A DNA stretch of 64,000 nt from Thermoanaerobaculia bacterium (GTDB lineage: Bacteria; Acidobacteriota; Thermoanaerobaculia; Multivoradales; UBA5704). This document shows positions 23,249-64,000 of the stretch, piece by piece. Each line of letters starts with the position of its first letter. Positions within the stretch are counted from its first letter, which is position 1. The DNA is taken from positions 32,480-96,479 of the forward strand of contig JBBRUC010000001.1 of NCBI GenBank assembly GCA_038248205.1, given 5' to 3'. A program made the translations under genes and the position numbers. The notes below the pieces were generated by a model that ran no database searches, was not told the DNA's origin, and worked only from the letters and a program-made list of their open reading frames with translations.

Positions 23249-23400
23249 TTACCTAACCCCCATCGTGTAATTGCTAAGGAAGCGCCCTTGCTCCGGGGGC
23301 TGCTTTTTACCAAAGGATCTCTCCGAGTATAGCAGAGGCCGCTATAGGTCAAAGCAAAGGCCCTGCCAAGGAGCCAGACGGCGGCGCCGGAGTCTCCCTC

Positions 23401-23430: not shown

Positions 23431-23487
23431 GCGAAACTTCGATAAAGAGAGGGTCGGCGCCAAGGCGCCGACCTTCTCAAAGTCAAC

Positions 23488-38601: not shown

Positions 38602-40848
38602 GTGATTCGAGTTCGGTTATTCGGCGGCTTCGAGGTCTGGCACGGAGATCGGCAGGTGCGAGGCTTCGAGTCCCAGAAGGTCCGAGCCCTCTTCGCCTAT
38701 TTGGCCTGTCAGTCGGCGCGCGCATTCAGTCGCGATCACCTCGCCGGCCTGCTCTGGCCCGAACAGGAAGACGACGGCGCACGGCACGCGCTGCGCCAAG
38801 CGCTCTATAACTTGCGTTCTGCGCTTCCCGGGCGTGACTCGGCGAACCCGCCGCTTCTGGTGAGCCACGGCGAGATCCGTATCAACCCGGCGGCGGGCCT
38901 TTGGGTCGACGTCCATGCCTTCGAGGAGTCGATCAAGCGTGGCGCCGCGCGGGACGCCGCCGACCCTCATCACCTCGCGACCGCGGTCCAATTGTATCGA
39001 GGCGATTTTTTGGTGGGTTTTTTCGTTCGCGACAGCAACACGTTCGAGGAGTGGCTGATCGCCGAGCAGGAGCGCCTTCGAGAGGCGACGGTCGAGGCGC
39101 TACACACCTTGATCGAGAGCTACCGGCGCCGGGGCGAATATCGATTTGGCCTGCACTATGCCCGACGGCTCGTCGCCCTGGAACCTCTCGCCGAGGAACC
39201 CCGACGCAACCTGATGCAGTTCTACGCGATGACCGGGCGCCGCAGCCAGGCGCTTGCCGAGTACGAGGATCTGGTGGCCCTCCTCGATCGCGAACTCGGT
39301 GTCGATCCCTTAGGGGAAACCCTGGAACTCTACGAATCGATCCGGGACGACGCGCCGACGCAAGGGGTTCCTCTCGCGGACGGCGAGCCGATCGGCCCGA
39401 TCATCCCCCTGGCGGGGCGCCGCGGCGCTTGGGATCGGCTTCGCGACAGCTGGCGCAGGGCTCTCTCCGGAGAGACCCCCGTCACTTTGGTCGTGGGAGA
39501 GACCGGCATCGGCAAAACCCGGCTGATCCGTACTTTTCTCGACGCGGTGAGCGGCTCTCGCCGAATCGTCGTCCTGCGCGGCGCAGGCCGGCCCTCGACT
39601 CTGCCGATACCGTTTCTCCCCTGGCTCGACCTCTTGCGTGGCGCGTTTGACGAGGCGACCGAAGGCGGCGGCCCCGACCCCGCGGCGCTTACGCCCCAAA
39701 AGTTCGGAGACCTCGCACGCCTTCTGCCCGAGATCGGATCTCGCCGCCCCGAGCTACCCTCTCCGGCGCCGTTGAAACGCGCAGCCGAGCGGCGACGGTT
39801 CTTCGAGAACGTGATCGACTACCTCGGCGCTTTTTGCTCCGCCGGCCCAGGAGTGGCGACCGTGCCGTTGGTGATCTTTCTCGACGACCTTCACCTGGTC
39901 GACGAGGACTCCCTGGAGCTTCTCTACGCGGCGATCTCTCGATTGCATGGGCAACCCTGTTGGTTCCTGATCGCCTCCGAGGTGATCGACCCGTCCGAGG
40001 CCCCGCCCTTCTTCTCTGAAGTTATCGCGCTCGCCGAGCGCGTCGAGATTCGACGGTTCGACGACAGCGCGATCGAAGAGATCGCCGCCTCCTTGGTTGG
40101 CGACGATCGTGCGAGAGAGCTGTCTCACTGGCTCGCCGGCCGGAGTAAAGGCCTGCCGTTCGCGATCGCGGAGCTGATCAACCTGCTCTGGGACGAGGGG
40201 CTGCTGACGCCTGGCGAAAACGGCATATGGCAGCTCGCATCCTCTTTGGAAACCGCGGAGGTGCCCACCAGCGGAGAACTCGGCGCCCTGCTCGGCGAAC
40301 GGGTCCGGCGGCTCCCCTCCTCGATCCGACGGCTGGCGATCCAAGCGGCGTTTGCCGGCGGCAGCTTCGAGGCCGACCTGCTCCAAAAGGCGGCTGACGA
40401 ACACCCGGCGGTGGTCGAAATCGGCCTTGAGCTGCTGCTCAAGCGGTGGCTGATCCGCCAGAGCATTCGGTACTGGTCGACTTTCGGCCGGGCATCCGAT
40501 GTCGCACTGTGGAACCGGGGCGCCCGGCGGGGCAGCTTCGAGTTCGCGCACCAGCAGGTGCGCGAGGCCCTGGCGTCTTCCGTCGTGCCGGAACGGCAAA
40601 GAGCCCTCCACGCCCGGATCGCCTCGACTCTAGAGACTCTGGCCGCGGATCATCTGGAGAGCCACTTCGAAGAACTCGCCGGGCATTACCTGGCAGCCGA
40701 GATGTGGAACCGAGCCCTCCCCTACCTTGAACTGGCGGAGAACCGAGCCCGGGGCCTGTTCGCCCGCACCGCCGCGGCGCGCTACGCCGCCGCGGCAGCC
40801 GAGGCGCGATTCCACCTCACCACCGAAAAATCTGGAACGACAGAGTAA
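38602..40848 (+). CDS. AfsR-like SARP-family transcriptional activator (OmpR-type winged helix, BTAD, NB-ARC-type P-loop ATPase, C-terminal helical repeats)
   Basis: N-terminus VIRVRLFGGFEVWHGDRQVRGFESQKVRALFAYLA (SARP DNA-binding domain). The BTAD region has MQFYAMTGRRSQALAEYEDLVALLDRELGVDP. Walker A VVGETGIGKTRL. GTG start at 38602, divergent from paralog 3. Confidence 0.8.
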   Translation: MIRVRLFGGFEVWHGDRQVRGFESQKVRALFAYLACQSARAFSRDHLAGLLWPEQEDDGARHALRQALYNLRSALPGRDSANPPLLVSHGEIRINPAAGLWVDVHAFEESIKRGAARDAADPHHLATAVQLYRGDFLVGFFVRDSNTFEEWLIAEQERLREATVEALHTLIESYRRRGEYRFGLHYARRLVALEPLAEEPRRNLMQFYAMTGRRSQALAEYEDLVALLDRELGVDPLGETLELYESIRDDAPTQGVPLADGEPIGPIIPLAGRRGAWDRLRDSWRRALSGETPVTLVVGETGIGKTRLIRTFLDAVSGSRRIVVLRGAGRPSTLPIPFLPWLDLLRGAFDEATEGGGPDPAALTPQKFGDLARLLPEIGSRRPELPSPAPLKRAAERRRFFENVIDYLGAFCSAGPGVATVPLVIFLDDLHLVDEDSLELLYAAISRLHGQPCWFLIASEVIDPSEAPPFFSEVIALAERVEIRRFDDSAIEEIAASLVGDDRARELSHWLAGRSKGLPFAIAELINLLWDEGLLTPGENGIWQLASSLETAEVPTSGELGALLGERVRRLPSSIRRLAIQAAFAGGSFEADLLQKAADEHPAVVEIGLELLLKRWLIRQSIRYWSTFGRASDVALWNRGARRGSFEFAHQQVREALASSVVPERQRALHARIASTLETLAADHLESHFEELAGHYLAAEMWNRALPYLELAENRARGLFARTAAARYAAAAAEARFHLTTEKSGTTE

Positions 40849-48621: not shown

Positions 48622-50391
48622 ATGGCGCGGCTGTTCGCCTATCTGGCGCCCTACCGCACCCGGCTCAACTTGGGCATCTCGTCCTCGGTGCTCAACAAGG
48701 TTCTCGATCTGATGCCGCCGCTGCTGGTCGGCTGGGTGATCGACTCGCTTCGCGGCGAGCCTCCTGCCTGGATTGCCCGGCTCGCGGGAACTTCCGAAGC
48801 CTGGAACCTCGCGGTGGTGCTCGCCGCGCTCTCGGTCGCGATCTTCTTCTTCGAGAGCCTGTTCCAATGGGGCTACCAGCATTTCTTCATGACGTTGGCC
48901 CAGGAGGTCCAGCACGACCTCCGGCTCGACGCCTACGAACGCATTCAGCGCCGCGAGATCGCGTTTTTCGAAGAGCACCGCCTGGGCGAGACGCTCGCGA
49001 TGTTGAACGACGACGTGAACCAGCTCGAACGTTTCTTGAACAACGGTGCCAACGAGCTGATCCAGACCGTGGTGCTGTTCATCTTCTCGGGCATCGTGCT
49101 GTTCGACACCTCGTGGCGCCTGGCGTTCATCGCAATGGCGCCGATCCCGTTGATCCTCTGGGGCAGCCTCGCCTACCAGCGCCGGATCGCGCCGCGCTAC
49201 AAGCGGGTGCGCGAAGCGGTGGGCAGCCTGTCGAGCCGGCTCGAAAATAACATCGGCGGCATCTTGGTCATTCAAAGTTTCGGCGCCGAAGCGTTCGAAC
49301 TGGACCGGGTGCGCGCCGCGTCGGCCGAATATCGGGAGGCGAATTTTCAGGCGATCCGGCTCTCGGCGATCTTCGTCCCGGTGATTCGCATGGCGATCGT
49401 GCTCGGCTTCGCCGGGGTGCTCCTTGTCGGCAGCCACTGGATTCTCGAACAGCGCAGTTGGATCACGGTCGGCCAGCTGGTCCTGTTCGCAATGATGACC
49501 GAACGGCTGCTCTGGCCGCTGGTCCGCCTCGGCCAGGTTCTGGACGAATATGAGCGGGCGAGGGCTTCGGCGCGGCGGACGTTCGGGTTGCTCGACACGC
49601 CATCGAAAATCGTCGAGCCGGCCGATCCGATCCGCATCGAGCGCGCCCGCGGCGAGCTGGAACTGGCGAACGTCGATTTCACCTACCAGCGCGGCGACCG
49701 GATTCTCGACCACCTGTCGTTCCACATCGCCCCGGGCGAGACGATCGGCATCGCAGGCCCCACCGGAGCGGGCAAATCGACGTTGATCAAGCTGCTGCTC
49801 CGCCTCTACGACCCGACCGGCGGCGCGGTCAAGCTGGACGGCCACGACTTGCGCGACCTGGCGCTCGAAGACCTGCGTCGCTCGATCGCCCTGGTCTCCC
49901 AGGACGTCTATCTCTTCCACGGTTCGCTACGCGAAAACATCGCCTATCGCGAGGTCGGCGTACCGTTCGAAAAAATCGTCGAAGCGGCAAAGTACGCCGA
50001 GCTGCACGATTTCATCGCCGGCCTGCCCGAGGGGTACGACACTCTCGTTGGAGAGCGCGGCATCAAGCTCTCCGGGGGCCAACGTCAGAGGCTGTCGATC
50101 GCCCGGGCGATCTTGAAGGACGCACCGATCCTGATCCTCGACGAAGCGACCAGCTCGGTCGACACCGAAACCGAGCGCGCAATCCAAGAAAACCTCCGCC
50201 GCTGGACCGCCGGCCGCACCGCCCTGATCATCGCCCATCGCCTCTCGACCATCCGCAACGCCGACCGCATCCTCGTCCTACGCGACGGCCGGCTCGCCGA
50301 AGAGGGTTCCCACGACGAGCTGATCGCTAGAGGGGGCACCTACGCCGATCTTTGGCACGTGCAGTCGGGCGAGCTGGTGGAGGTGGGGTAG
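48622..50391 (+). CDS. ABC exporter, fused TMD-NBD (MsbA/ABCB-like half transporter)
   Basis: Six TM helices, then an NBD with GPTGAGKSTL, LSGGQRQRLSIARAIL and ILDEATSSVD. No N-terminal C39 peptidase domain. Start chosen at ATG 48622 (MARLFAYLAPYRTRL). Confidence 0.85.
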   Translation: MARLFAYLAPYRTRLNLGISSSVLNKVLDLMPPLLVGWVIDSLRGEPPAWIARLAGTSEAWNLAVVLAALSVAIFFFESLFQWGYQHFFMTLAQEVQHDLRLDAYERIQRREIAFFEEHRLGETLAMLNDDVNQLERFLNNGANELIQTVVLFIFSGIVLFDTSWRLAFIAMAPIPLILWGSLAYQRRIAPRYKRVREAVGSLSSRLENNIGGILVIQSFGAEAFELDRVRAASAEYREANFQAIRLSAIFVPVIRMAIVLGFAGVLLVGSHWILEQRSWITVGQLVLFAMMTERLLWPLVRLGQVLDEYERARASARRTFGLLDTPSKIVEPADPIRIERARGELELANVDFTYQRGDRILDHLSFHIAPGETIGIAGPTGAGKSTLIKLLLRLYDPTGGAVKLDGHDLRDLALEDLRRSIALVSQDVYLFHGSLRENIAYREVGVPFEKIVEAAKYAELHDFIAGLPEGYDTLVGERGIKLSGGQRQRLSIARAILKDAPILILDEATSSVDTETERAIQENLRRWTAGRTALIIAHRLSTIRNADRILVLRDGRLAEEGSHDELIARGGTYADLWHVQSGELVEVG

Positions 50392-50568
50392 CGGGAGCCT
50401 CCGGGTAACGCCCAAGACCTCGTCAAAATCGATTGCCTTGTAGGGGCGCCCCCCCGTTGTCCGGCCTTCAGGACACCCCCGTGGGCGCCCAAGAAGGCCA
50501 CGGGCTCCAACGTTCCATCCGGGGTACCTCGTGTCGCGGCCGGGCGTGCTAGATTTTGTTCCGACTCG

Positions 50569-53085
50569 ATGACGCTCAAAGCCTCCGACGTCCTTCGTCG
50601 CGACCCGGCCGCCCAGGCGGTAGCACTCCCCGATGGCCGTCTCTTCCTCCGGCATCGCGACGGGGCGAGCCTGCTCGGCGGAATCGAGCTTGGCAATCTT
50701 CACGGCCTGCTCGGCCTCGTCGACGGCGTGCGCACCGCGGCGGAAGTCGTAGCCGCGGCGGGGGCGCTCGATCCGCCGTTTTCCGAGCGGGAGGCGCGGG
50801 GCCTGCTCCAGGCGCTCGACGGCGAAATGGTGCTGCGGGTGTCGGCAAAAGCGAACGAGGCCTCCGAGGCTCTGTCGGTTCTCGTACTCGGCGAGGGCGA
50901 TCTCGCTCGCTCGATTGAGGCGTCGCTCCGCCGCGCCGCTCCTTCCGTCGCGATCCGCCGGCTCGATCGTTTCGACCCTACCGATCCCGCACTCCCGGAC
51001 TCGGCGCTCGTCGTCTGCGTGACAGAGGAAGTGTCGTACCGGGATCTTCTCGCCGTCCAGGCGGCTTGCTTGGATGCGGGCGCGCCGGCCCTTTTCGTAA
51101 CCGCCGATCCAGATGGCGTTCGCGTCGGACCGACCGCGATTCCGGGAGTCGGTCCGTGCTTTGCCTGCGCGCAGCTCGCGGCGACCCGGTTCGTCGGTCT
51201 CGACCCCGCGGCGAGGCTCTCGGCCGTCTCAAACTTCCGAGCGGGGAAGATCGATCCCGCAACGCGTACATGGGTGGAGCGCGCGCTCGCCGACGAGGCG
51301 CTTCGGGTGCTGGGGGTAGACGGCCGAGGGCCAGACCTCTTCGATGCCCTCCTCGTGCTGGCCCCACGGGCGTTCGATTCGGGCGAGGCGCGACGCGTTC
51401 CGCTCGAACGCGACCCCGGCTGCCCCCTCTGCGCGGGAACGGAACCGCCCCGGACCGCGATCGCCGAGCGCGCCGAGATCTCGATCGTCGAGACCGAAGA
51501 TCGCAAGCCGTTACGCGCCGCCGTTGTCGTGCGCGAAGAGCCGGAGGCGTTCGTCCGTTCGGTCGGCATCGTCGGCGGCGGCACGGCCGGGTACCTCGCC
51601 GCCTTGGCGCTCCGGAAGAAGGTTCCCAGTCTCGCGGTCACCTTGATCGAGTCGCCGGACCTGCCCGTCATCGGCGTCGGCGAAGCGACCACGCCGCTTC
51701 TGCCGCAGTTCCTGCACGTCGATCTCGGGCTCGACATCCATACACTGTTCGAAGAGGTCCGTCCGACGCTCAAGCTCGGCATCCGCTTCCTTTGGGGAGC
51801 CCCCGGCGTGGGCGATTTTCACTATCCGTTCGGCCCCGTCCACGTGTTGGAACCCGCCGTCTATGGCGGGTCGGAGGATCTACGTTCCTGCTCGCTCCAA
51901 TCGCTCTTGATGGGCGCGGACGCGGTCGGTCTGTACCGAAGCGAAAACGATTCCTGGAGCAGCCGTTTGAACACGGCGACCGCCTATCACTTGGACAACG
52001 AGCGTTTCGTCTCGTATCTCCAGCGGCGCGCCGTCGAGGCCGGCGTCGAGCGAATCGAAGCGACCCTGGTCGATGCCGAGTTGGCGGAAAGAACGGACGG
52101 CGGCGGCGGGGATCGCGAGGTAAGCCATCTGGTCGCCAGCGACGGCCGTCGCCTGGCGTTCGACCTCTACCTCGACTGCACGGGATTCCGCTCGTTTCTT
52201 TTGGAGCGTGCCCTCGGTTCGCCTTGGCTCAGCTTCGAAAAGAGCCTATGGACCGACCGGGCGGTGGTCGCCGCGGTACCTCACGGCGGCACGATTCATC
52301 CCTACACGACCGCCGAAACGTATGCCGCCGGATGGTGCTGGAACACGCCGCAGATCGAAGCCGACCATCGCGGCTATGTCTACTCGTCGGCCCACCTGAG
52401 CCCCGAAGAGGCCGAGGCCGAGATGCGACGCGGGAACCCGGGGATGGGCGAGGCGCGCGAAGTACGGTTTCGCGCCGGCCGGCACGAGCATTTCTGGCAG
52501 GGCAACGTGCTCGCGCTGGGCAACGCCTACGGCTTCGTCGAGCCGCTTGAGTCGACCGCGCTCCACCTGCTGATTCGCCAGATCGGGCTGCTCTGCGGGC
52601 TCTTCCCGCTCCGCCGCACCGACAGAAGCCTCGTCCCGCTGCTCAACCGTCGCGTGGGCGCCTGGTGGGACTACCTCTCCTGGTTTCTCGCCATCCACTA
52701 CCGCTTCAACCGCCGCCTCGACACTCCGTTTTGGCGTGCCGCGCGAGCCGAGGTGGACGTATCGCAGCATGCCGAGCTGCTCGACACCTTCCGGCATCGC
52801 GGACCGCTGTCCTACGACCCGGCCATCCGGAACGCTTTCGACTATCCCGACCCGCTCTGGGGGCCGGAAGGAATCGACACCCTCCTGCTCGGCCAAGGCG
52901 TCCCCTGTCGCCTGCCGCGCCCTTTCCTGTCCCCCGACGCATGGCGCGCTCAGATCGAGAGAATGCAGTCCACCGTCGGGCGGGCCGCTCCCCACTCCCT
53001 GGCCCTCGACCTGCTCGCAACCCAGGCGAGCCTTCGCGAAAGCTTCGCCGCCACCTTCCGCGCCGCCGGGCCTGCCTTCCCCTAG
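50569..53085 (+). CDS. Tri-domain fusion: PqqD-like RRE (about aa 1-90), E1/ThiF-like TOMM-docking-type domain (about aa 100-320), flavin-dependent tryptophan-halogenase-family domain (about aa 330-838)
   Basis: RRE: VALPDGRLFLRHRDGASLLGGIELGNLHGLLGLVDGVRTAAEVV. E1-like: VLVLGEGDLARSI, and DLLAVQAACLDAGAPALFVTADPDGVRVGPTAIPGVGPCFACAQ with a CxxC. Halogenase: VGIVGGGTAGYLAALAL...IGVGEATTP, and GWCWNTPQ, which approximates the WxWxIP flavin-halogenase signature. Confidence 0.75.
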   Translation: MTLKASDVLRRDPAAQAVALPDGRLFLRHRDGASLLGGIELGNLHGLLGLVDGVRTAAEVVAAAGALDPPFSEREARGLLQALDGEMVLRVSAKANEASEALSVLVLGEGDLARSIEASLRRAAPSVAIRRLDRFDPTDPALPDSALVVCVTEEVSYRDLLAVQAACLDAGAPALFVTADPDGVRVGPTAIPGVGPCFACAQLAATRFVGLDPAARLSAVSNFRAGKIDPATRTWVERALADEALRVLGVDGRGPDLFDALLVLAPRAFDSGEARRVPLERDPGCPLCAGTEPPRTAIAERAEISIVETEDRKPLRAAVVVREEPEAFVRSVGIVGGGTAGYLAALALRKKVPSLAVTLIESPDLPVIGVGEATTPLLPQFLHVDLGLDIHTLFEEVRPTLKLGIRFLWGAPGVGDFHYPFGPVHVLEPAVYGGSEDLRSCSLQSLLMGADAVGLYRSENDSWSSRLNTATAYHLDNERFVSYLQRRAVEAGVERIEATLVDAELAERTDGGGGDREVSHLVASDGRRLAFDLYLDCTGFRSFLLERALGSPWLSFEKSLWTDRAVVAAVPHGGTIHPYTTAETYAAGWCWNTPQIEADHRGYVYSSAHLSPEEAEAEMRRGNPGMGEAREVRFRAGRHEHFWQGNVLALGNAYGFVEPLESTALHLLIRQIGLLCGLFPLRRTDRSLVPLLNRRVGAWWDYLSWFLAIHYRFNRRLDTPFWRAARAEVDVSQHAELLDTFRHRGPLSYDPAIRNAFDYPDPLWGPEGIDTLLLGQGVPCRLPRPFLSPDAWRAQIERMQSTVGRAAPHSLALDLLATQASLRESFAATFRAAGPAFP

Positions 53086-53187
53086 CAGCCCGTGGTTTAA
53101 GTGTCCCGAACTGCGATTGCTCACCCGTAAGCCCTTTAGATTCAGTGCCCGAACTTGGCCCAAACGACTTCTGCCACGGGCTGCTAG
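53082..53187 (+). promoter_or_regulatory. Long-range perfect 14-bp inverted repeat (CTAGCAGCCCGTGG ... CCACGGGCTGCTAG) bracketing the halogenase stop, with internal direct repeats GTG(T)CCCGAACT; possible attenuator or processing structure before the precursor gene
   Basis: Arms at 53082..53095 and 53174..53187. Internal direct repeats at 53100..53114 and 53143..53157. It sits between the modifying-enzyme gene and the precursor ORF. Confidence 0.35.
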
Positions 53188-53275
53188 GGGTAATCCGACC
53201 CGATTGCCCCGGCGATTCGCACCTTCTTGGGTAGGACGCGTCGATTGCCGCCGCGGCCGGAAAGGAATTTTGCCG

Positions 53276-53494
53276 ATGAAAAAGAAGAAGCTCACCCTCT
53301 CCAGAGAGACCCTGGCCCACTTGGAGTCCCGAGGCCTTCGCGCCGTCCGCGGCGCCTCGGCCAACACCTGTACTCAGTGTACCGACTGGGTGACGTGCGC
53401 CACCTGCGAGTCGTGCGATACCTGCCCGCCCTGGTGCGTCATCTCGGAAACGCTCTGCCTCTCGGCCTGCAAAACGGCCTGCGCGGGCTGCTGA
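53276..53494 (+). CDS. Candidate Cys/Thr/Trp-rich RiPP precursor peptide (72 aa)
   Basis: MKKKKLTLSRETLAHLESRGLRAVRGASA / NTCTQCTDWVTCATCESCDTCPPWCVISETLCLSACKTACAGC. AAGGA Shine-Dalgarno 10 bp before ATG 53276. Amphipathic leader-like N-terminus with a Gly-Ala junction. The core has 11 Cys, 2 Trp and many Thr/Ser. It lies directly downstream of the RRE-E1-halogenase fusion. Confidence 0.5.
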   Translation: MKKKKLTLSRETLAHLESRGLRAVRGASANTCTQCTDWVTCATCESCDTCPPWCVISETLCLSACKTACAGC

Positions 53495-53549
53495 TACCGA
53501 TCACCCGGATCGTCGGGCACGAGCGGCGATCCGGGCGTCTTCAATTCCC

Positions 53550-55565
<2,016 letters not shown>

Positions 55566-55659
55566 AAATTCTCCTCGAACAAGGTGGCCAGGTGGCGGCG
55601 AGCCTGCGCATCCTAGCAGCGGGCCAACGAAGCGGCGTGGGTCACTCGCCCTTCCTAAC

Positions 55660-56301
55660 TCAATCCGCGAACACCCGCCCGACTTCCACCCCAGACCGCG
55701 CCGCCAGGTCCCGTAACGCTCGCTCCGCCTCGCCTGCGAAAACGACCCCCACCGGCAAGTAGGCGACCAGCCAGCCGTGGGCGGTTTCGGGTTGGATCTT
55801 CACCCGCACGCTGTCGGTGATCGGAGTACCGAGCGGCCCCTTGGCGTCGGCGAGAAGCGGTTTTCCTTCGAGCGAGAACGGCCCGCGGAGCGACTCGAAG
55901 GTTTCGCCGGATGCTCCGGCGCGGAGGACGAGCGGCGGCTCCATGGATTCGGCGGCCATGATGCAGCTGGGCACCGCGAGGTCGATCGAGAGGGCGTTGT
56001 TCAGATCGACCAGCGGCTGGATCGCCGCGAGGTCTTCACCCTTGAGCACCCTGCGAAGCAGCGCTTCGGACGACGGCCGGTAGCGGGTGGGATCGCAGCC
56101 CGCGGCGCGGAACAGCTTGCGGATCGCGGCCACCGTCGGATCGTCGGCCGACAGCTGCGCGCCATGCCGCGCACGAGCTTTCTCGATCGTCTCGCGCAGC
56201 ACCGCATGCGCCGCGGGAGAGAGGGGATCGACCGTCAACTCGGCCCAGACGAGAGTCCAGCCGGGAAGATCGAGGCGGACGGCAAAGGGAGCGTCGTTCA
56301 T
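55660..56301 (-). CDS. B3/4 domain-containing protein (PheT-like tRNA-binding fold)
   Basis: PTVAAIRKLFRAAGCDPTRYRPSSEALLRRVLKGEDLAAIQPLVDLNNALSIDLAVP matches the B3_4 domain pattern. Confidence 0.6.
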   Translation of the reverse strand: MNDAPFAVRLDLPGWTLVWAELTVDPLSPAAHAVLRETIEKARARHGAQLSADDPTVAAIRKLFRAAGCDPTRYRPSSEALLRRVLKGEDLAAIQPLVDLNNALSIDLAVPSCIMAAESMEPPLVLRAGASGETFESLRGPFSLEGKPLLADAKGPLGTPITDSVRVKIQPETAHGWLVAYLPVGVVFAGEAERALRDLAARSGVEVGRVFAD

Positions 56302-56337
56302 GCCCCCGATTCTGGCACGGGCACCGGGCGGTTCGCC

Positions 56338-58242
56338 TCAGCGGGGAACGATCGGCTGGAACGTCTCGGTCGCCGGATCCCAACGGGCGAAGGTGGCCGG
56401 CCCGGTGAGCACGACCTTGGCCTTGGATTCCGCTGGATCAAGCGGCGGCACCCTGCCGCGTCCCACCTCTCGAATCGTGCCGGCCGCGAGGTCGAAAAGG
56501 ATCAGGCGTCGCGCCTCCAAGGTAGAGGGTGCGCCGCCGGCCGCGACCGAGGCTAGGATGGTGGTCGGAGTCGGTTGGCCGGCTAAGAGGAGCCCGGGGT
56601 ATCCCCCCAGATCGAACCGCCGCCGCAACGTTCCGGTCCGGTCGTAGATCGCGAGGCTCCGCGACTCCGGAAGGCGGACCCTGATCGCCACCAGGCCGTT
56701 CCGCAGAAGGTCACCGCTGCTTTGTCTCGGCTCGTCGATCACGCCCACCGCATCACCGGTCCGGCCGTCGAAAATTTCCCGATGTCCGGTTCCGGTTTCC
56801 CGCACGAGGAGAGTCGCGCCGTCGCGGCTCACGTCCCAGGAGATGCCGTGCGCGGGAAGCTCGATAAAGCCGACCTGGAGGGCGGCGGCTCCCGGTTCCG
56901 AGGGCACCTGGATCTCCGCGATCGAGATCTGTGACGAGACGGAGACCGGGGCGTTGGCCACCATGTTCCAACAACGCAGGCGATCCTCGCCGGTCCAGGC
57001 CGTCCGGACCGCGCTCCAGTCCGAGTTGACGGGAACCGAGGCGACGAGGCGGCCGGTTCGAAGCTCGAAGATCAGAAGACGACCGTCCGAGCGGGTGGCG
57101 AGCCAGCGGCCCGTAGGGGAAAGAGCGGGTATTTCGGCGGCCCGTTCGAACGAGATCGGACCGTTCTCGACCTTCGGCTTGGCCGCCGAAATGTCGGTCC
57201 AGAGAACTCTCATCTCTGTCGGCGAATCGGAAAACCACGCCGCCACCCTACCGTCGCTCGAGAAGGTGGTCGGAAAGAACCAACTATCGCGAGAAACGCC
57301 CTGACGCACCACGCGGCCGGTGGCTGCGTCGATCAGGAACCTGCCCGAGAGTGCCCCTCGGTTGCGCAGCTTTCCGCCCACCGAAAACCACGAACCGGCC
57401 GGCGCTTCGAACACAACGTCGACACCCGCGAGATCAGTCACTTTCGGCGTAACGACCCACCGCGAGGCCGCCTCGAGGGCGAGAGCTCCGAGGAGGAGCG
57501 GTACCCAGAGCGCGATCGAGAGCACGCGGTGCCCGCGGGCGAGATCGGTTCGCCCGACCAGCAGCTGAACCAGGGTGGCGCCGGTCAAAACGATGAGAAA
57601 AAGGGCGAGATAGGAGGTCGCGCCGACGGAGAATGCATCCTGCGCCCAGCTTCGGTGAAGACGCGTGAGGGCGGCCCCCACCAGAAGTCCCACAGCCAAA
57701 AGCCCGACGAGATCCAACCCGAGCGCCGCCGATCGCGAGGCAAACAGCAGTACGCCGACATGGGAAAGGAAGAGGAGTGCCAGGCAACACAGCAGGCTGG
57801 CGACGAACGTCCAGTTCGGCCCCAGAGCGGCAGCGGTCGGCAGGTAACCGACTTCCTTGGGCAGGAACGAGTGCTTCAGCCAACCGACGAGGAACGCTGG
57901 GGCCACCACCAGCACCGCCGAGGCAAAAAGCAGCGTGACCGCCGAGCCGATCCGTCCCGCCCAGATGGAGAAGCCCGAGATCGGTCGGACGAAATCGAAT
58001 CCAAGCCGGCCCTCGACAAGGTCGCGAACGACCGCACCGGACCCGAGGACCAGGGCAAAGATGCCGCAGGTGAGCAGGCTGAGCAGGAGCGCCGCCTCGA
58101 CTGCCGTTTCGGCGGCGGTGGCGCCGACCTGCCCTTGCAGGCGCGGTACGACCAAAGCCATGAGGCCGATGGCGAATGCGCCGATCAGCAGAACCCGGCG
58201 CAGGCGAAACTCCCGGGCGAAGACGGCGAGAAACGCGCTCAT
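56338..58242 (-). CDS. ABC-2-type transporter permease fused to a C-terminal extracytoplasmic beta-propeller-like domain
   Basis: About 6 TM helices in the N-terminal 300 aa, then a roughly 330-aa soluble domain. ATGA start/stop overlap with the upstream ATPase gene. Confidence 0.55.
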   Translation of the reverse strand: MSAFLAVFAREFRLRRVLLIGAFAIGLMALVVPRLQGQVGATAAETAVEAALLLSLLTCGIFALVLGSGAVVRDLVEGRLGFDFVRPISGFSIWAGRIGSAVTLLFASAVLVVAPAFLVGWLKHSFLPKEVGYLPTAAALGPNWTFVASLLCCLALLFLSHVGVLLFASRSAALGLDLVGLLAVGLLVGAALTRLHRSWAQDAFSVGATSYLALFLIVLTGATLVQLLVGRTDLARGHRVLSIALWVPLLLGALALEAASRWVVTPKVTDLAGVDVVFEAPAGSWFSVGGKLRNRGALSGRFLIDAATGRVVRQGVSRDSWFFPTTFSSDGRVAAWFSDSPTEMRVLWTDISAAKPKVENGPISFERAAEIPALSPTGRWLATRSDGRLLIFELRTGRLVASVPVNSDWSAVRTAWTGEDRLRCWNMVANAPVSVSSQISIAEIQVPSEPGAAALQVGFIELPAHGISWDVSRDGATLLVRETGTGHREIFDGRTGDAVGVIDEPRQSSGDLLRNGLVAIRVRLPESRSLAIYDRTGTLRRRFDLGGYPGLLLAGQPTPTTILASVAAGGAPSTLEARRLILFDLAAGTIREVGRGRVPPLDPAESKAKVVLTGPATFARWDPATETFQPIVPR

Positions 58243-59141
58243 GCGTCACCTTTCGGCCCGGCCGATCCGACCAGGGCGACGAACAGTTCTTCGAGCGGAA
58301 CGGCTTCTACCTCGGCCGCGCCGAAGCGGGCCATGCCCGCCCACAGCTCTTCGGTGAACCGCGAGACGATCGCCTCCAGCCCCCAAGCCTTCCGCTCGAC
58401 CGCGATCGGCTCCAGCTCGGCGAGGGCGGCTTCCACGCCCTCCGCCGGCCTCACCCAGCGCAGGCGGCGAAAGCGCGCTTTGACCGATTCGAGATCCTCG
58501 TCGAGCCGGAGCGTCCCCTCGCGCAGGATGCCCACCCGATCGGCGATCCCCTCGACCGCCGCCAGCTCGTGGGTGGTCAGGAAGACGGTGGTGCCGCGCT
58601 CGGCGAGGTCGCCGATCAGCTCTTCGAAAACGGAACGCTTGGCGACCGGATCGAGCCCGAGGGTCGGATCGTCGAGAATCAAAATGGGAGGCGCCGGGGC
58701 GAGGGCCAAAGCGAGCGCCACTTGCCCCTTCTGCCCCTTCGAAAGCCGGCCGAACGGCTGATCGAGCGGCACGCCGAACCGGCGCAAGCGCGCGTCGAAC
58801 CCGGCGCGGTCGAAACGCGGAAAAATCCGGGCGGAGAAACGCGCAATCTCCCGAGCCGAGAGGGCCACCGGAGCATCCGGCTCTTCGGGCACCACGCCGA
58901 CCTCGGCGAGCACTTCCGCCCGCTCCCGCCAAACGTCCCGGCCGAACAGCTGGGCGCTCCCGGAGTCCGGCCGACGCAGGCCGAGCAGGCAGCGGACAAG
59001 GGTTGATTTGCCCGCACCGTTCAAACCGATCAGCGCGTACACGGAGCCGCGAACGACCGACAGCGAAACCTGCTCGAGGGCGCTCTTCCGCCCGAACCGG
59101 ACGGTCAGGTCGGTCGCCCGCAAAGGAACTTCGGGGCTCAT
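58239..59141 (-). CDS. ABC transporter ATP-binding protein
   Basis: LIGLNGAGKSTL, LSKGQKGQVALALAL and ILILDDPTLGLD. GAGGAGGA Shine-Dalgarno before ATG 59141. Confidence 0.85.
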   Translation of the reverse strand: MSPEVPLRATDLTVRFGRKSALEQVSLSVVRGSVYALIGLNGAGKSTLVRCLLGLRRPDSGSAQLFGRDVWRERAEVLAEVGVVPEEPDAPVALSAREIARFSARIFPRFDRAGFDARLRRFGVPLDQPFGRLSKGQKGQVALALALAPAPPILILDDPTLGLDPVAKRSVFEELIGDLAERGTTVFLTTHELAAVEGIADRVGILREGTLRLDEDLESVKARFRRLRWVRPAEGVEAALAELEPIAVERKAWGLEAIVSRFTEELWAGMARFGAAEVEAVPLEELFVALVGSAGPKGDA

Positions 59142-59539
59142 GACTCTCCTCCTCTTTCGCGGCTCTCGACGATTTGGTCCCATGCCGCCTCGGCCGCCTC
59201 GACCGTCTCCTCCCGCGAGACCCCCAAGGTCACGGCCTGGCTCGCGAATCGAACCGCAGCCTCTTCCAGCAGACGGTCGCGCTCCCGCTTGGGGAACGCC
59301 GGGGGCTTTTCCGACACGAACGTCCCCTCGCCCCGGCGGACGACGAGCACCCCCTGGTCGGTCAGACGCTGATAAGCCTTGGAAACCGTCGCCGGATTGA
59401 CCTGCAGATCCTTTGCCAAATCGCGCACCGAAGGGACGTTCTCCCCCGAAGGCAGAGCCCCACTCGCCACCAAATGGCGAACCGCCTCCTCAATCTGTCG
59501 CCAGATCGGGCGCGGATCCGATGGATCGATCCTGAGCAT
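59138..59539 (-). CDS. GntR-family (YtrA-subfamily-like) transcriptional regulator
   Basis: HTH region LPSGENVPSVRDLAKDLQVNPATVSKAYQRL and a short C-terminus. First gene of a GntR, ABC ATPase, ABC-2 permease operon. Confidence 0.75.
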   Translation of the reverse strand: MLRIDPSDPRPIWRQIEEAVRHLVASGALPSGENVPSVRDLAKDLQVNPATVSKAYQRLTDQGVLVVRRGEGTFVSEKPPAFPKRERDRLLEEAAVRFASQAVTLGVSREETVEAAEAAWDQIVESRERGGES

Positions 59540-59662
59540 CCCGGCGTCCCCGAAGGCCACCGGCTGGACGGTGGCGGTGTGTTAGGGTTATAACACAGCT
59601 CGGGGAAGGGGTGGCGGAGGGATTTGGACGGGAGTTCTATAGGTTGCATGCAGGGCGAAACT

Positions 59663-61051
59663 TCAGGGATACGACTCAGACTCCGGGATGAGCGGCACCG
59701 GATGATTGCCTGTTTGCGGCCGCTCGATCCTGTCGCCGTTGAATAAACAGGGTTCTAGATTGTATAAGGGAGAGATATACCTCCCTTCATAGTTCAACAT
59801 CGCCATCACAATTCTCTTCAGCAGCTCCTCCGCGATGTCACTCGCACGATTTATGCGGCCCCGATTCTTTCCGATCTTCTCCAGGAACCCTCGATGAACA
59901 AGATCGTTTCGGCAGCCTACAACGACATGTCGCAGTTCACGTTCATCGATATCATTTACCGGAACCTTGTAGTGCTCCATAAGCTGTCGCACCTTGTCGA
60001 AAAACGTGGGCCTGTTTAAATTTGCGAGACTCTTGTTTAGGCTTTCTTTTTGCGTTGGCTCCAAGACTCCGCTTTCGACTAGGCCAGCAAGAGCCTCACG
60101 TAGCCGCGGCACTACCTTTGAACTGAATATTTTCTTGGGGATCAAGGGACTGGCTTTGTTTTCAAAGGTAGAGACCAGCAACTCTAGTGCAATTATCTGG
60201 TTTAAAATTCTCGTTTCCGCATATGGCGCCGGAGCAAGCATCCATGAAAGTGCAACGTCGAGCTTGGTCTGAAGAATAAGATCCCGCGTGCAGGACTGAA
60301 CTGCGAGCTGAAGTACGGGCTCGAGGTCAAGGTGAGGAAAGAGCTGAGCTAAGACTGCGTCGCTGAGGCTGTGAGAACGGATCCTTTTGGAGACCAGGTC
60401 GTCACCTACTGCTACTTCCCGAGCGGTCCACATGAGCCAGCGTCCCTGTGCCAATGACAGTACGTTGAGGACTCTCTCGGCAAGGTCATCACTGGCTTTA
60501 ATCCATTCGTCAAGGCTGAGATCGACGTTCTTCACTATTCGAATTGCGCCAAATTTTTCCATTGCCGCCGCAACACTGGAAGTTGCGCTGGTGAAAAGCG
60601 TACCTACCGTAGTGTCAACTGGTCGATGAGGGAATCCGAGTTGGCCAAGTGATAAGTAGGTAGCAGAGACATCCCTTTCTGCTGTACACGCGGGAGACGG
60701 CCGCTCGAGATTAAGCTCGGAAACAGAAACCATCGGTTGAAGAGTAACCGCCCCAGGAGTGGAAGATGTAACCAAGTTTTCCAGGTGCGCGAATTCCGAA
60801 TATACCTTTAGACCACATGCTGACAGCCCTGATAGATGAAAATATGGACGTTGCCGATTATTGCTTTGTAGTAAGTCATGCCACAGCTTCCAGTGGGCAC
60901 ACCACTCTCTGTTGGACGATTGGACAGCATCGATCTCTAACGTGATTTCCCCTAACTGGCCGATTTTGACGCGGAAGCTCACTCTTAGCTCAATCCCCGC
61001 CCAGGACAAGATACCTTCGCGTACTTCAATTGACTGAGTCGTCTCTATCAT
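59663..61051 (-). CDS. Hypothetical protein with a C-terminal HEPN-like Rx4H motif, encoded on a low-GC island (candidate Abi/defense or toxin protein)
   Basis: About 50% GC over 59700..61050 versus about 68% elsewhere. The C-terminal segment ELRHVVVGCRNDLVHRGF carries an R-x4-H motif characteristic of HEPN RNase folds. No other recognizable domain. Start uncertain: ATG 61051, while the track ORF extends to 61219. Confidence 0.45.
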   Translation of the reverse strand: MIETTQSIEVREGILSWAGIELRVSFRVKIGQLGEITLEIDAVQSSNREWCAHWKLWHDLLQSNNRQRPYFHLSGLSACGLKVYSEFAHLENLVTSSTPGAVTLQPMVSVSELNLERPSPACTAERDVSATYLSLGQLGFPHRPVDTTVGTLFTSATSSVAAAMEKFGAIRIVKNVDLSLDEWIKASDDLAERVLNVLSLAQGRWLMWTAREVAVGDDLVSKRIRSHSLSDAVLAQLFPHLDLEPVLQLAVQSCTRDLILQTKLDVALSWMLAPAPYAETRILNQIIALELLVSTFENKASPLIPKKIFSSKVVPRLREALAGLVESGVLEPTQKESLNKSLANLNRPTFFDKVRQLMEHYKVPVNDIDERELRHVVVGCRNDLVHRGFLEKIGKNRGRINRASDIAEELLKRIVMAMLNYEGRYISPLYNLEPCLFNGDRIERPQTGNHPVPLIPESESYP

Positions 61052-61097
61052 TCGCCAGTGAACCTTTTTCTGTCCCACCACCGGCGGACCCGGCCGC

Positions 61098-61394
61098 TCA
61101 AGTCGTAGGGCAGCACGTCCGGCTCGCTTGTCCGAGCAACTCGATGAAAGCCTCAACGGAGAGGTCGGCCAGTTTCGCGGCTTGCGCCAGCGTCGCCTGT
61201 CCGGCTTCGTAGACATCAAGGGCCACGGCCCGATGGACTCCGTGAGCTAGCAGGCGCTCTCCGAAGGGAATCGCCAGAATGGCAGGCCGACCGTTCTTCG
61301 TGATGATCGATAGCTTTCCCGCCTCAGCGTCCCGAAGCAATTCTCCTGAACGAAGCCGGAGGTCGCGGGCGGTGAAAACGCCAAAGCGTTCCAT
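61098..61394 (-). CDS. Phd/YefM-like antitoxin N-terminal domain fused to a UPF0175-like C-terminal domain
   Basis: MERFGVFTARDLRLRSGELLRDAEAGKLSIITKNGRPAILAIPF shows the Phd/YefM pattern. AVALDVYEAGQATLAQAAKLADLSVEAFIELL is UPF0175-like. GGAAGGAAGAG Shine-Dalgarno before ATG 61394. Confidence 0.5.
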   Translation of the reverse strand: MERFGVFTARDLRLRSGELLRDAEAGKLSIITKNGRPAILAIPFGERLLAHGVHRAVALDVYEAGQATLAQAAKLADLSVEAFIELLGQASRTCCPTT

Positions 61395-61482
61395 AGGTCT
61401 CTTCCTTCCCATTGTGCCGTCAAAGCGTAGCGCCACACCGGCGCTGGGGGTATCGTGCGCCGCGCCAACGCCCGGAGGCGAC

Positions 61483-61785
61483 TCAGCTGACCGAGCGCCC
61501 ACGCAGCCAACGCCCGAGGGAGGATTGGCTCTCGCCCGAAGGGCGGCCGAGGATCAAGCCCTCGACGCTGATGTCCTCGTCCAGGTCGGGCCAGTGGATT
61601 CCCTCGCCCCCCTGGATCAAGCGCCAGTGCGCTCGCTCAGCGGGGCTGCCGCGGAGAAGTCGCGGATACCATCCCAGCGGCACAGAGATCGTTCGGCCAT
61701 CTAGCAGGTCGACGGTCAGGGCTTCGTCTGTGACTGAGAGGCCCAACGCTTTCCCAACCTTGGGTTCATACGCCAAAGAACTCAT
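61483..61785 (-). CDS. DUF2442 domain protein
   Basis: LTVDLLDGRTISVPLGWYPRLLRGSPAERAHWRLIQGGEGIHWPDLDEDISVEGL matches the DUF2442 pattern. Confidence 0.6.
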   Translation of the reverse strand: MSSLAYEPKVGKALGLSVTDEALTVDLLDGRTISVPLGWYPRLLRGSPAERAHWRLIQGGEGIHWPDLDEDISVEGLILGRPSGESQSSLGRWLRGRSVS

Positions 61786-62002
61786 TCCAGCTCCCTAAGA
61801 GGTCGTCTTTGTGATCCTCGATCATCTGTTGCAGCCGAGCGAGCTCAACCCGGCTGAAGCCTTCGCTGGAGTGGAGGCGAACCGGCAAGAGCCAAAACTT
61901 GGCCTCGCCCCCAGCGCTCTCTACGTGCACATGCGGCGGCTCGCTTCGGTCGCCCGAGTAGAAGAAGAAGCGGTACGAACCGCTGCGCAAGATCGTCGGC
62001 AT
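61766..62002 (-). CDS. DUF4160 domain protein
   Basis: MPTILRSGSYRFFFYSGDRSEPPHVHVESAGGEAKFWL matches the DUF4160 pattern. It overlaps the downstream DUF2442 gene by 20 nt, forming the common DUF4160/DUF2442 two-gene module. Confidence 0.6.
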   Translation of the reverse strand: MPTILRSGSYRFFFYSGDRSEPPHVHVESAGGEAKFWLLPVRLHSSEGFSRVELARLQQMIEDHKDDLLGSWNEFFGV

Positions 62003-62257
62003 GAGACATGACTCTAGGCGAAGGGCCGAAAGGGAGCGTAAGTCTCGTTACCCCCGGTGTCAATCCGCCCGTCCTGCCTGCGCAATCGGCTGCGGGTCCA
62101 TTGCGCCGAACCTGACCCGCAGGGGGAGAGACGCCCCAGGACGTGACCACAGACTTGCCCGGGTCCACCGACGTCGGGGCGTCTCCAGCGCACCAACGAC
62201 CACCGGCGCCAGCTACATGGACAGACGGCGACACACGCGGCCCCGGCGCCCTGGCGG

Positions 62258-62824
62258 CTAACCGCGCAGGCGCTGCACGAGGTGGGCAGCGCATCGCGGC
62301 AGCAGCAGCCCGCCTTGGATCAATATGTATCCGCAGGCGACAAACAGCACGACGAACTTGATTCCGGCCGCCAGGCTCGCGCCGACGACGTCGAGCTTCG
62401 TGGCGCCCTGGTCGAGCATGCGCAGCATGAACAGGTTCTCGGTGGCATCCAGGGGGAGTGCGGCGAGCACCGACCAGGCGATGACGAACCCGATCGGCCC
62501 GCCAAAACTTTTCGGGGAGCGCGCCAGCAGGGAACAGGCGAGCGAAAAGGCCAGCGGGTAGAGCACCAGGAACCCGAAGTCCCAATGGATCTGCTTGCGG
62601 GCGAGATCGAGTTGGTTGGCGTCGGCCCAGGACTGACGAATCGCATCGGCACGATCCGGGGTCCAGGCAAGCTCGTACGAGACCACGGCGTGCGTCGCCA
62701 CGCGATTATTGAGGTCCTTGCCTTGCTTGCCGAGAGCCAAGGAGTAACAGACGGTCGCAACCGCGAGAACCAAAAACAGCACCCAGCGAGCTGGACCCTG
62801 GAGAAACGCAAAGGGGTCGCTCAT
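62258..62824 (-). CDS. Hypothetical integral membrane protein
   Basis: 188 aa with about 5 predicted TM helices. No identifiable family. Confidence 0.45.
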   Translation of the reverse strand: MSDPFAFLQGPARWVLFLVLAVATVCYSLALGKQGKDLNNRVATHAVVSYELAWTPDRADAIRQSWADANQLDLARKQIHWDFGFLVLYPLAFSLACSLLARSPKSFGGPIGFVIAWSVLAALPLDATENLFMLRMLDQGATKLDVVGASLAAGIKFVVLFVACGYILIQGGLLLPRCAAHLVQRLRG

Positions 62825-63077
62825 CTCTCTTCACCTCCCGAGAGTAATGACAGACCCTACGCCAGTTTTACGCCAAGATTTTCTGCCCGGCGCGGACCTG
62901 CGCGAATCGAGCCGAACAACGCCGGGAGACGGAAACCCCTCCGCCCTGGGGACGACCTCGCAGATCTCGGCGATCCACGGCAAGCGAAGCGAACGGCGAA
63001 TTCCCCGCGGCGTAACCTTCCGGGCCGCCACTCAGTTGCGTGGCGACCCGGAAGGTGTCGATCTATTTTTCTCCTGC

Positions 63078-63272
63078 CTAGGCCGAAACCGCCCGTCCCT
63101 CGACCCGGGCGGGTGGCGGGGGGAGAGGGTGGCCGCAGCCGAGGCCGGTTCCTCCGGGGGAGGCGGTGGCAAGGTCCGTCCGGTGCTCGGCGCAGAGGCC
63201 GATCGAGCAGTGCGGGCAGAGGGCGACCGCCTCGGTGGCGCGGCCCGCTTCGTTACAGAGATAGCAGCGCAT
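63078..63272 (-). CDS. Small Cys-rich zinc-ribbon-like protein (64 aa) immediately downstream of the catalase
   Basis: MRCYLCNEAGRATEAVALCPHCSIGLCAEH carries a CxxC...CxxC pattern. GGAGGTGGG Shine-Dalgarno before ATG 63272. It begins 5 bp after the catalase stop. Confidence 0.45.
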   Translation of the reverse strand: MRCYLCNEAGRATEAVALCPHCSIGLCAEHRTDLATASPGGTGLGCGHPLPPPPARVEGRAVSA

Positions 63273-63276
63273 GGCT

Positions 63277-64000
63277 TTAGCCCACCTCCGCCAGCTCGGG
63301 CTCCCGGACGCAACCGATCGCCCCGGGGGCCATCGCCGCGATCTCGGCGCCGGAGATGCCAAGCTCCGCGGCGACCCGCATGCCGTAGTCGGGATCGGCG
63401 CGGAAGAAGTGGCAGAGCTGCAGCATCTGCACCTCGCGCCGCGCCTGCGAGAGCGGTCCGGCGATCGCCTTGGCCAACCGGTCGCGCTCCCCTTCGTCGA
63501 ACAGCCGGAAGAGATTGCCCGGCTGGGTGTAGTCGTCATTGCCGATCCGATGGTCATAGCGATCGGCCACCACGTCACCGAGCGGCATCGGCGGCTCGGC
63601 GTACTGGGGCGCCTCGCGCGGCGTACCCGGCACGGTGTTGGGGAAGTAGTTGGGCGAAGAGCCCCCCTGGCCGACCGACATCACCCCGTCGCGCTGGTAG
63701 TTCATGACCGGGCAGCGTGGTTTGTTGACCGGCAGCTGGTGGTAGTTCGTCCCGATCCGATAGCGGTGGGCGTCGGCGTAGCTCATCAGCCGGGCCTGGA
63801 GCATCTTGTCGGGGCTCCAGGAAATGCCCGGCACCGTAGCGCTGGGCGAGAACGACGCCTGCTCGACCTCGGCGAAGTAATTCTCCGGATTGCGGTTGAG
63901 CTCCAGGATGCCGACCTCGATCAGTGGAAACTCGCCGTGCGGCCAGACCTTGGTCAGATCGAACGGGTTGAACCGGAACTCCTCCGCCTGGACCTCGGTC
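63277..64000 (-). CDS. katA: Catalase (monofunctional heme catalase), C-terminal part; the gene continues past the window end
   Basis: Reverse-strand translation to the window edge gives FNPFDLTKVWPHGEFPLIEVGILELNRNPENYFAEVEQASFSPSATVPGISWSPDKMLQARLMSYADAHRYRIGTNYHQLPVNKPRCPVMNYQRDG, a canonical catalase core/C-terminal sequence. Confidence 0.9.
   Translation of the reverse strand, partial: TEVQAEEFRFNPFDLTKVWPHGEFPLIEVGILELNRNPENYFAEVEQASFSPSATVPGISWSPDKMLQARLMSYADAHRYRIGTNYHQLPVNKPRCPVMNYQRDGVMSVGQGGSSPNYFPNTVPGTPREAPQYAEPPMPLGDVVADRYDHRIGNDDYTQPGNLFRLFDEGERDRLAKAIAGPLSQARREVQMLQLCHFFRADPDYGMRVAAELGISGAEIAAMAPGAIGCVREPELAEVG

Follow-up and report, generated by a model that had tools for sequence, protein, structure and literature searches.

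A low-GC gene for an ApeA-like HEPN protein as the probable replacement of a DUF3368 toxin behind a truncated antitoxin in a Thermoanaerobaculia genome

A gene of low guanine-cytosine (GC) content, encoding a protein of 462 amino acids (aa) with a HEPN-type motif, was analysed in Thermoanaerobaculia bacterium assembly GCA_038248205.1 (contig JBBRUC010000001.1, positions 32,480 to 96,479). This whole stretch of 64,000 nucleotides (nt) is referred to as the window, and coordinates are those of the window unless a homologous locus (L001 and so on) is named. The gene is best explained as encoding a horizontally acquired, stand-alone HEPN ribonuclease (RNase) effector of the ApeA kind that displaced a DUF3368 toxin, with the antitoxin gene beside it a scar of that event and not a partner. 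The probability of this explanation was put at about 0.6. The region consists of four co-oriented minus-strand genes, in the order DUF4160, DUF2442, a 98-aa antitoxin gene and the 462-aa gene; coordinates are given in Table 1.

The start of the gene was placed at the ATG at 61051, as all homologues begin at ATG. The single gene that the first-pass annotation had seen in the GC trough was confirmed, at 462 aa plus a stop codon (given earlier as 463 aa). A 518-aa TTG-initiated open reading frame (ORF; 59663-61219) was rejected because it overlaps the antitoxin gene by ~120 nt and homologue alignments place the start at the ATG. GC content was 0.48-0.53 across ~59700-61050 and 0.65-0.70 on either side when calculated in 300-nt windows, in line with the abrupt drop described earlier across ~59700..61050. 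For the gene as a whole it was 0.505, compared with a mean of 0.656 (standard deviation 0.023, minimum 0.593) for gene-length windows elsewhere in the window (z = -6.5), and the gene is the deepest GC trough of the 64 kb. GC was reduced at all three codon positions; the possibility raised beforehand that the deviation would vanish at third positions did not hold, as it is larger there (third-position GC 0.533, versus 0.75-0.81 in the flanking genes). The 76 nt between the point where antitoxin homology breaks off and the ATG have a GC content of 0.67, so the trough coincides with the 462-aa ORF itself.

A full profile search with the protein returned 670 representative clusters (50% identity) at E ≤ 1e-3, of which 136 remained under the stricter cut of E ≤ 1e-30; only nine relatives were found with a word-indexed search. 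Among the matches listed, the best-scoring relatives were mostly full-length (~420-480 aa), and members of the family are mostly ~440 aa and carry no curated annotation. An alignment was built from 93 diverse members with 18-55% identity to the 462-aa protein. R381, H386, E409 and R413 were invariant in all 93. The first two belong to the RNDLVH (R-x4-H) motif at residues 381-386 that had been singled out as HEPN-type from the sequence, an assignment that the alignment supports; the family consensus is RNxIVHxG, with a polar N directly after the R. In the HEPN superfamily the R of the defining R-x4-6-H motif is immediately followed by a polar residue (N, D or H), and the motif closes a helix that leads into a loop (PMC3710099). 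In an AlphaFold2 (AF2) model of the protein (predicted local distance difference test score, pLDDT, 82; predicted template modelling score, pTM, 0.74), DSSP assignment placed the R-x4-H motif at the end of a predicted helix (370-386), followed by a loop and a second helix (397-418). Extra helices were modelled at 332-360, between candidate HEPN helices 2 and 3. The model divides into a beta-rich part at residues 1-235 and a helical part at 243-418.

Two Pfam families recurred among the 93 relatives and no further one did: HEPN_Apea was matched by 24 of them at E ≤ 0.01 (best E 9e-8) and HEPN_RiboL-PSP by 15 (best 3.8e-5). The top Protein Data Bank (PDB) sequence match of the family profile was the antiviral Ec3ApeA (9hxj), at an E value of only 0.28; two motifs, ALExLV and RNxIVHxG, occur in matching order in the alignment. 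Sub-significant PADLOC matches to Cas13-ApeA models were obtained for 15 of the 93 relatives (best 4.5e-5) and none for the 462-aa protein, to which NCBIfam likewise assigned nothing. On these profile matches and conserved residues, it is very probable that the C-terminal domain is of HEPN type and belongs near the ApeA and RiboL-PSP families. The N-terminal domain had no Pfam match even at E 10. In Foldseek comparisons of the full-length model with PDB and BFVD, this domain weakly resembled Hcp and phage tail-tube proteins (E 0.004-0.1, template modelling (TM) score 0.4-0.5 normalised to the target), a resemblance too weak to be adopted as an identity. One homologue (P0008, 553 aa; L005:246-2962) has an extra Cys-rich C-terminal extension of ~100 aa.

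The closest relative (95% identity) was located at the syntenic locus of a Thermoanaerobaculia metagenome-assembled genome (L001/L008). A 56%-identical homologue (L002) was found at an unrelated locus of an 8.8-Mb Thermoanaerobaculaceae genome, and genome and metagenome scans added two short contigs (L010, L011). Gene-sized GC troughs were present at the homologues of L002 (0.50 versus 0.68), L004 (0.48 versus 0.68), L007 (0.51 versus 0.63) and L012 (24% identity; 0.43 versus 0.67). These troughs at unrelated loci, together with the sharp trough at all codon positions in the window, uphold the horizontal acquisition that had been proposed from composition. Across 12 independent homologue loci no neighbour gene was conserved. 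Directly upstream were found Unstab_antitox and a 57-aa ORF (L002), a divergent PIN/VapB (L004), an EACC1-like gene and a 141-aa gene (L005), a 107-aa gene of no known family (L006), prs (L012) and a divergent gene (L023), and nothing was called upstream in L007 and L024. Distant relatives were located by tblastn on eight plasmids, five of them conjugative. On Ensifer pC (L026) the relative is annotated as a 'HEPN domain-containing protein' and adjoins DUF262 and patatin-like phospholipase genes; on an Agrobacterium pTi (L028) it adjoins DUF6088/AbiEii and RES NAD+ phosphorylase genes; on a Thalassospira plasmid (L025) it lies near a recombinase and a NYN-domain gene. All three are defence or toxin-antitoxin style neighbourhoods. 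Patchy loci, a recurrent trough, plasmid carriage and the absence of a partner together characterise a conflict gene that is mobile and has no fixed companion.

Repeats flanking the HEPN gene, proposed earlier as a check, were short and at chance level. No conserved 5' or 3' non-coding sequence or attC-like 3' element was found among the homologue loci, no tRNA in window 50000-64000 and no Rfam match in 58000-64000. Signs of a mobile element or integron cassette were absent at the HEPN gene, integrase genes not having been searched for systematically. A phage origin was considered and rejected, as no relatives were found among viral contigs or GenBank phages.

Several features of individual homologue loci were recorded. 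In L002 (9554-10000) an intact Unstab_antitox gene is followed by the 57-aa ORF, which ends 40 nt before the homologue ATG, and a Phd/YefM gene lies ~1.3 kb upstream of the homologue on the opposite strand. An initial assignment of the 57-aa ORF as a frameshifted ParE-type toxin remnant was withdrawn: Pfam matched neither the ORF nor either of two versions with the frameshift corrected, and nothing came of BLASTP against a ParE or of a phmmer search of PDB. An assignment of the ORF upstream in L007 as DUF2442 was likewise withdrawn, Pfam and BLASTP having given no confirmation. The product of a 98-aa gene in L005 falls just short of the EACC1 (effector-associated constant component) cut-off of 23.6 bits, with a score of 23.5 (E 6e-5). 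The L012 member (L012:8001-10162) is wedged between prs and a rplY-pth-ychF cluster, with a Methyltransf_21 (FkbM-type) gene of host-like GC 3 nt from its 3' end; this arrangement was found on 5 contigs.

The gene directly upstream of the HEPN gene, on the same strand, encodes the Phd-UPF0175 fusion reported in the first-pass annotation, with a gap to the HEPN ATG of 46 nt (previously given as 47). Its 98-aa product matched UPF0175 at E 5e-7 and, weakly, Phd/YefM at E 0.003 in Pfam, and NCBIfam phd_fam at 24 bits, above the cut-off. The UPF0175 match spans profile positions 20-56 of 75. The antitoxin family is widespread and well conserved (171 matches), with a length of ~110-113 aa. At two independent loci (L017, L021) an intact 111-aa antitoxin is followed, after 12 nt, by a 160-aa DUF3368 PIN-like gene, and UPF0175 has been reported exclusively beside the DUF3368 (COG2405 PIN-like) toxin family (Matelska et al., PMC5499597). 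The 98-aa protein is 80-85% identical to the intact copies over residues 1-90. Protein and DNA homology then end at ~61128, and the last eight residues, SRTCCPTT, are unrelated to intact antitoxins. Some 21 C-terminal residues are lost, comprising the acidic tail and the end of the UPF0175 domain. No DUF3368 gene was detected in the 64-kb window by tblastn with two DUF3368 queries (best E 0.29). The junction is identical in L001 and in a short contig (L022), so the insertion predates the split of these lineages.

The simplest reading of these sequences is that an ORF-sized segment, arriving horizontally, would have taken the place of the final ~21 antitoxin codons together with the entire cognate DUF3368 toxin gene. 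The antitoxin-like neighbour is most likely a leftover and not the partner of the HEPN protein. The adjacency of Phd-UPF0175 and HEPN genes is confined to the window, its 95%-identical sister L001 and the identical L022, and is absent from all other homologue loci. The earlier suggestion that a Phd-like antitoxin was paired with a large HEPN protein, which had made the locus look unusual, is not supported, given that the antitoxin family's own partner is DUF3368, the tail is cut at residue 90 and the adjacency is not recurrent. Beside the intact Phd-UPF0175/DUF3368 pair of L021, a second UPF0175 fragment (54 aa) and a DUF433 gene were noted (L021:5278-5442); fragmentary antitoxin copies thus seem to be common in these genomes.

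Synonymous divergence (dS) and the ratio of nonsynonymous to synonymous divergence (dN/dS) were calculated pairwise between the window and L001. Values of dS and dN/dS were 0.06 and 0.385 for the HEPN gene, 0.37 and 0.05 for the antitoxin stub, 0.054 and 0.084 for DUF2442, 0.24 and 0.146 for GntR, and 0.40 and 0.142 for the ABC ATPase. HEPN residues 1-420 differ by 15 nonsynonymous and 11 synonymous changes, and the ORF is intact in both sister genomes. The gene is alive, and its protein evolves faster than those of its neighbours, as conflict genes often do. A sliding comparison of window 58100-62100 with L001 8950-12930 revealed a mosaic, with divergence of ~1-2% at 61863-61364, ~1-6% at 61114-59800, 1-4% at 59563-59364 and 10-20% elsewhere; in the catalase and B3_4 genes on the flanks, identity is no higher than 83-86%. 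The mosaic suggests recombinational exchange of parts of the islet among related lineages, or gene conversion of the stub by a paralogue; in consequence, some of what looks like purifying selection on the stub may be due to conversion by an intact paralogue. In L001 the DUF4160 gene (L001:9167-9283) keeps residues 40-78, 100% identical, after a stop codon and unrelated sequence, and DUF2442 is intact. This truncation and the missing DUF3368 gene indicate that toxins of the islet are being lost and antitoxins persist, because loss of a toxin is tolerated and loss of an antitoxin is not. Under such a bias a foreign gene would end up behind an antitoxin with no functional link to it.

The sequences directly show the anomalous composition, the family with its invariant residues, the want of a conserved partner, the cut antitoxin and the missing toxin. 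If the protein acts like ApeA and other HEPN effectors, two molecules of it would pair through their HEPN domains, and R381 and H386 from each would build a composite, metal-independent active site. The N-terminal domain may restrain the enzyme until a trigger is met, the likeliest being infection or the entry of a mobile element, whereupon the enzyme would cut RNA and arrest the cell. ApeA itself cuts tRNA anticodon loops (bioRxiv 10.64898/2026.01.26.701840). The antitoxin stub may still repress the promoter of the old operon, which probably transcribes the new gene. The catalytic, sensing and defence steps of this scheme are drawn from the HEPN literature and would apply here by analogy.

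A number of results weigh against this explanation. The 462-aa protein itself scored E 0.006 and 17.4 bits against Pfam HEPN_Apea, for which the gathering score is 24.4. When the C-terminal domain was modelled by itself (pLDDT 78) and compared with PDB by Foldseek, nothing matched at E ≤ 0.001, the HEPN toxins 8xdj_C and 1wty_A appearing at rank 28-29 with E 4.9 and TM 0.40. The HEPN assignment of the first-pass annotation therefore stands at the level of sequence profiles of the family, and neither the protein's own Pfam score nor the structural comparison reached significance. Ex3[KR], a frequent second HEPN signature, usually lies in helix 2 upstream of R-x4-6-H (PMC3710099); unlike this usual order, the E-x3-R motif of the family lies downstream of R-x4-H, and the upstream E279 and E290, at least 90% conserved, are not in an Ex3[KR] context. 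The PADLOC scan that had been proposed assigned no known system, returning for the 462-aa protein a weak PDC-S58 match (E 0.003) and nothing significant. The N-terminal domain is beta-rich, unlike the helical N-terminal and Mid domains of ApeA, and the sensing step is pure inference. RNase activity and a defence role in the family would follow from analogy; the lack of relatives among viral contigs and GenBank phages also counts here. No genome was found with an undisturbed site, that is, with DUF2442, an intact antitoxin, DUF3368 and GntR in synteny, and the replacement is read from the non-syntenic intact loci L017 and L021. Finally, the dN/dS of 0.05 implies that the stub still does something, possibly involving the new gene.

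This last point bears on two other accounts of the small gene. Were the Phd-UPF0175 protein and the 462-aa HEPN protein a new type II pair, in which the small protein binds and neutralises the RNase, their shared strand, the 46-nt gap with no predicted terminator or promoter, and the stub ORF kept intact in both sister genomes under low dN/dS would all be expected. In L002, too, the homologue has a same-strand antitoxin gene ahead of it, there of another kind (Unstab_antitox), and large HEPN toxins with dedicated antitoxins exist, namely RNase LS/RnlA with RnlB (PMC3710099). The pairing is nevertheless improbable: beyond the window and the sister that is 95% identical to it, the arrangement is missing from all 12 other contexts, the family's conserved partner is DUF3368, the window copy is without its last ~21 residues, acidic tail and end of the UPF0175 domain, and the low-divergence patch between the window and L001 begins at the breakpoint, so the two genes differ in history. 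Somewhat less unlikely, and compatible with the explanation favoured above, is that the stub does not neutralise anything and was kept as a repressor of the old promoter, which would by now be driving and throttling the foreign gene. The low dN/dS of the stub, read as purifying selection, would fit, as would retention of its Phd-like and helix-turn-helix parts when the C-terminal ~21 residues were lost, the 46-nt gap free of promoter-like sites, and the near absence of upstream sequence in the foreign segment, whose leader has a GC of 0.67 and is not conserved among homologues. Co-transcription and DNA binding by the stub are presumed in this account, however, and the high dS of 0.37, confined to the stub when the genes on either side have 0.06, may be the mark of gene conversion by an intact paralogue rather than of long-term selection on the stub. 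Counts in the promoter and terminator scan were at the level expected from shuffled sequence and thus uninformative, and the simple sigma-70 scan may not suit this phylum.

The HEPN-like protein might instead process RNA or serve a housekeeping role, or be a scaffold without catalytic activity; it would then have no part in conflict, and its low GC would signal recent transfer and nothing more. The lack of a significant PADLOC match, the one distant member inside a housekeeping cluster between prs and rplY/pth, and the part of the family that scores best against RiboL-PSP-HEPN would be in keeping with this. Little credence is given to it in view of the patchy distribution over non-orthologous loci, the recurrence of an un-ameliorated GC trough, the plasmid relatives beside AbiE, RES, DUF262 and patatin genes, the invariant catalytic residues and a dN/dS of 0.385, compared with 0.05-0.15 in neighbouring genes. 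A bolder scheme, which we consider a long shot, is that the gene is an ORF-sized 'plug-in' toxin that spreads by supplanting the toxin genes of resident toxin-antitoxin operons, takes over their promoter and keeps the antitoxin stub as a regulator or neutraliser; its persistently low GC, confined exactly to the ORF in one host after another, would then be selected and not a sign of recent arrival. If true, modular toxin swapping would create hybrid toxin-antitoxin or defence operons.

Among known systems the stand-alone effector reading is closest to ApeA, which was reportedly described as a single-protein HEPN anti-phage system by Gao et al. in 2020. ApeA is likewise a single large protein with a C-terminal Apea-type HEPN domain and a non-catalytic N-terminal region, and it too is without a conserved partner gene, as is the 462-aa family over its 12 independent contexts. 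In Pfam and among PDB sequences alike, the best match of the 462-aa family is also ApeA, and RNxxVHxG and ALExLV motifs are common to both. The N-terminal and Mid domains of ApeA are predominantly alpha-helical and form a ligand pocket with the HEPN domain (bioRxiv 10.64898/2026.01.26.701840), whereas residues 1-240 of the 462-aa protein are beta-rich. Ec2ApeA extends beyond 583 residues, compared with 462 in the window protein, and neither the Pfam HEPN_Apea threshold nor the PADLOC ApeA hidden Markov model recognises the latter. The 462-aa protein is therefore not a member of the characterised ApeA system, although ApeA is the closest known one. An architecture of ApeA-NTD1 (mostly beta) followed by HEPN(Apea) was listed by Anantharaman et al. 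2013 (PMC3710099), with PCC7424_5050 as the example. In outline it matches the 462-aa protein, a likeness by description; no sequence tie was found between the N-terminal domain and any Pfam N-terminal domain model.

Compared with UPF0175/DUF3368 modules, the 98-aa gene of the window is a clear member of the antitoxin family, but the window copy is without the toxin and without the last ~21 antitoxin residues, and a HEPN gene stands in the toxin's place. RnlA/RnlB (RNase LS) and HepT/MntA, in which HEPN RNase toxins occur in two-gene modules, are precedents for HEPN toxin-antitoxin pairing; they differ in having conserved cognate antitoxins, of which the 462-aa family has none. If the stand-alone effector reading is right, the family would form a large branch of HEPN effectors that act as single proteins, akin to ApeA but so far unannotated and equipped with a different, beta-rich sensor domain, a branch that Pfam, NCBIfam and PADLOC all miss at their thresholds. 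It would be a new candidate for defence or abortive infection, probably responding through its N-terminal domain to a trigger of a new kind. The locus would also be a clean example of remodelling of a toxin-antitoxin operon, in which a foreign gene replaces the toxin and a harmless stub persists under purifying selection, and it cautions that an arrangement of 'antitoxin plus downstream nuclease' need not be a cognate pair.

Table 1. Window coordinates of the HEPN gene, its domains and motifs, and the neighbouring genes
Feature	Coordinates	Strand	Basis
HEPN gene, 462 aa + stop, two-domain product	59663..61051	minus	ORF, homologue start, GC
Beta-rich N-terminal domain, residues 1-240	60332..61051	minus	DSSP on AF2 model
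Helical C-terminal domain, predicted HEPN RNase domain, residues 243-420	59792..60325	minus	Profiles and AF2
R381-N-D-L-V-H386 (RNDLVH), predicted R-x4-H catalytic motif	59894..59911	minus	Invariant R and H
E409-L-L-K-R413, E-x3-R motif in helix after R-x4-H	59813..59827	minus	Invariant in 93 sequences
Junction/leader, holds new stop codon of truncated antitoxin	61052..61127	minus	Homology end; 100% identical in L001
Phd-UPF0175 antitoxin gene, truncated, 98 aa	61098..61394	minus	Pfam, NCBIfam, homologues
DUF2442 gene, DhiA-type antitoxin, 100 aa	61483..61785	minus	Pfam E 2e-21
DUF4160 gene, DhiT-type toxin, 78 aa, first of pair	61766..62002	minus	Pfam E 3e-19
GntR-family regulator gene, first of GntR / ABC ATPase / permease operon	59138..59560	minus	Pfam GntR E 9e-16, ABC_tran E 2e-24

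The two-gene DUF4160/DUF2442 module noted upstream in the first-pass annotation was confirmed, both domains being matched in Pfam (Table 1). The genes overlap by 20 nt, and their order and overlap are as in DhiT/DhiA, an experimentally validated toxin-antitoxin module of Dickeya dadantii with the same Pfam domain pair, the toxin gene first and overlapping genes (PMC8198452). The description of the region as a small toxin-antitoxin islet holds for this pair. It is only distantly related to DhiT/DhiA, as the DUF4160 product scored 24.6 bits against NCBIfam toxin_DhiT, far under the 100-bit equivalog cut-off. The pair is a separate module with no functional tie to the HEPN gene.

Downstream, the insertion is bounded by the GntR operon, the genes of which have host GC (0.66-0.69) and are syntenic in L001. 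A near-perfect palindrome, TGTGTTATAACCCTAACACA, lies at window 59578-59597 on the minus strand, shortly before the start of the GntR gene, and recurs almost unchanged in L001; by its appearance it is an operator through which the GntR/ABC-transporter operon regulates itself. Situated ~65 nt past the HEPN stop codon, it helps to bracket the downstream edge of the foreign segment. Milder GC dips (0.58-0.60), unrelated to the HEPN gene, were present at ~22.5-23.7 kb and 37-38.7 kb, within window 21310-29538 and 36592-40848. They neighbour an asparagine synthase-like gene, a 2016-aa surface protein with 11 SdrD_B repeats, a second SdrD_B protein and a BTAD/AAA_16 regulator.

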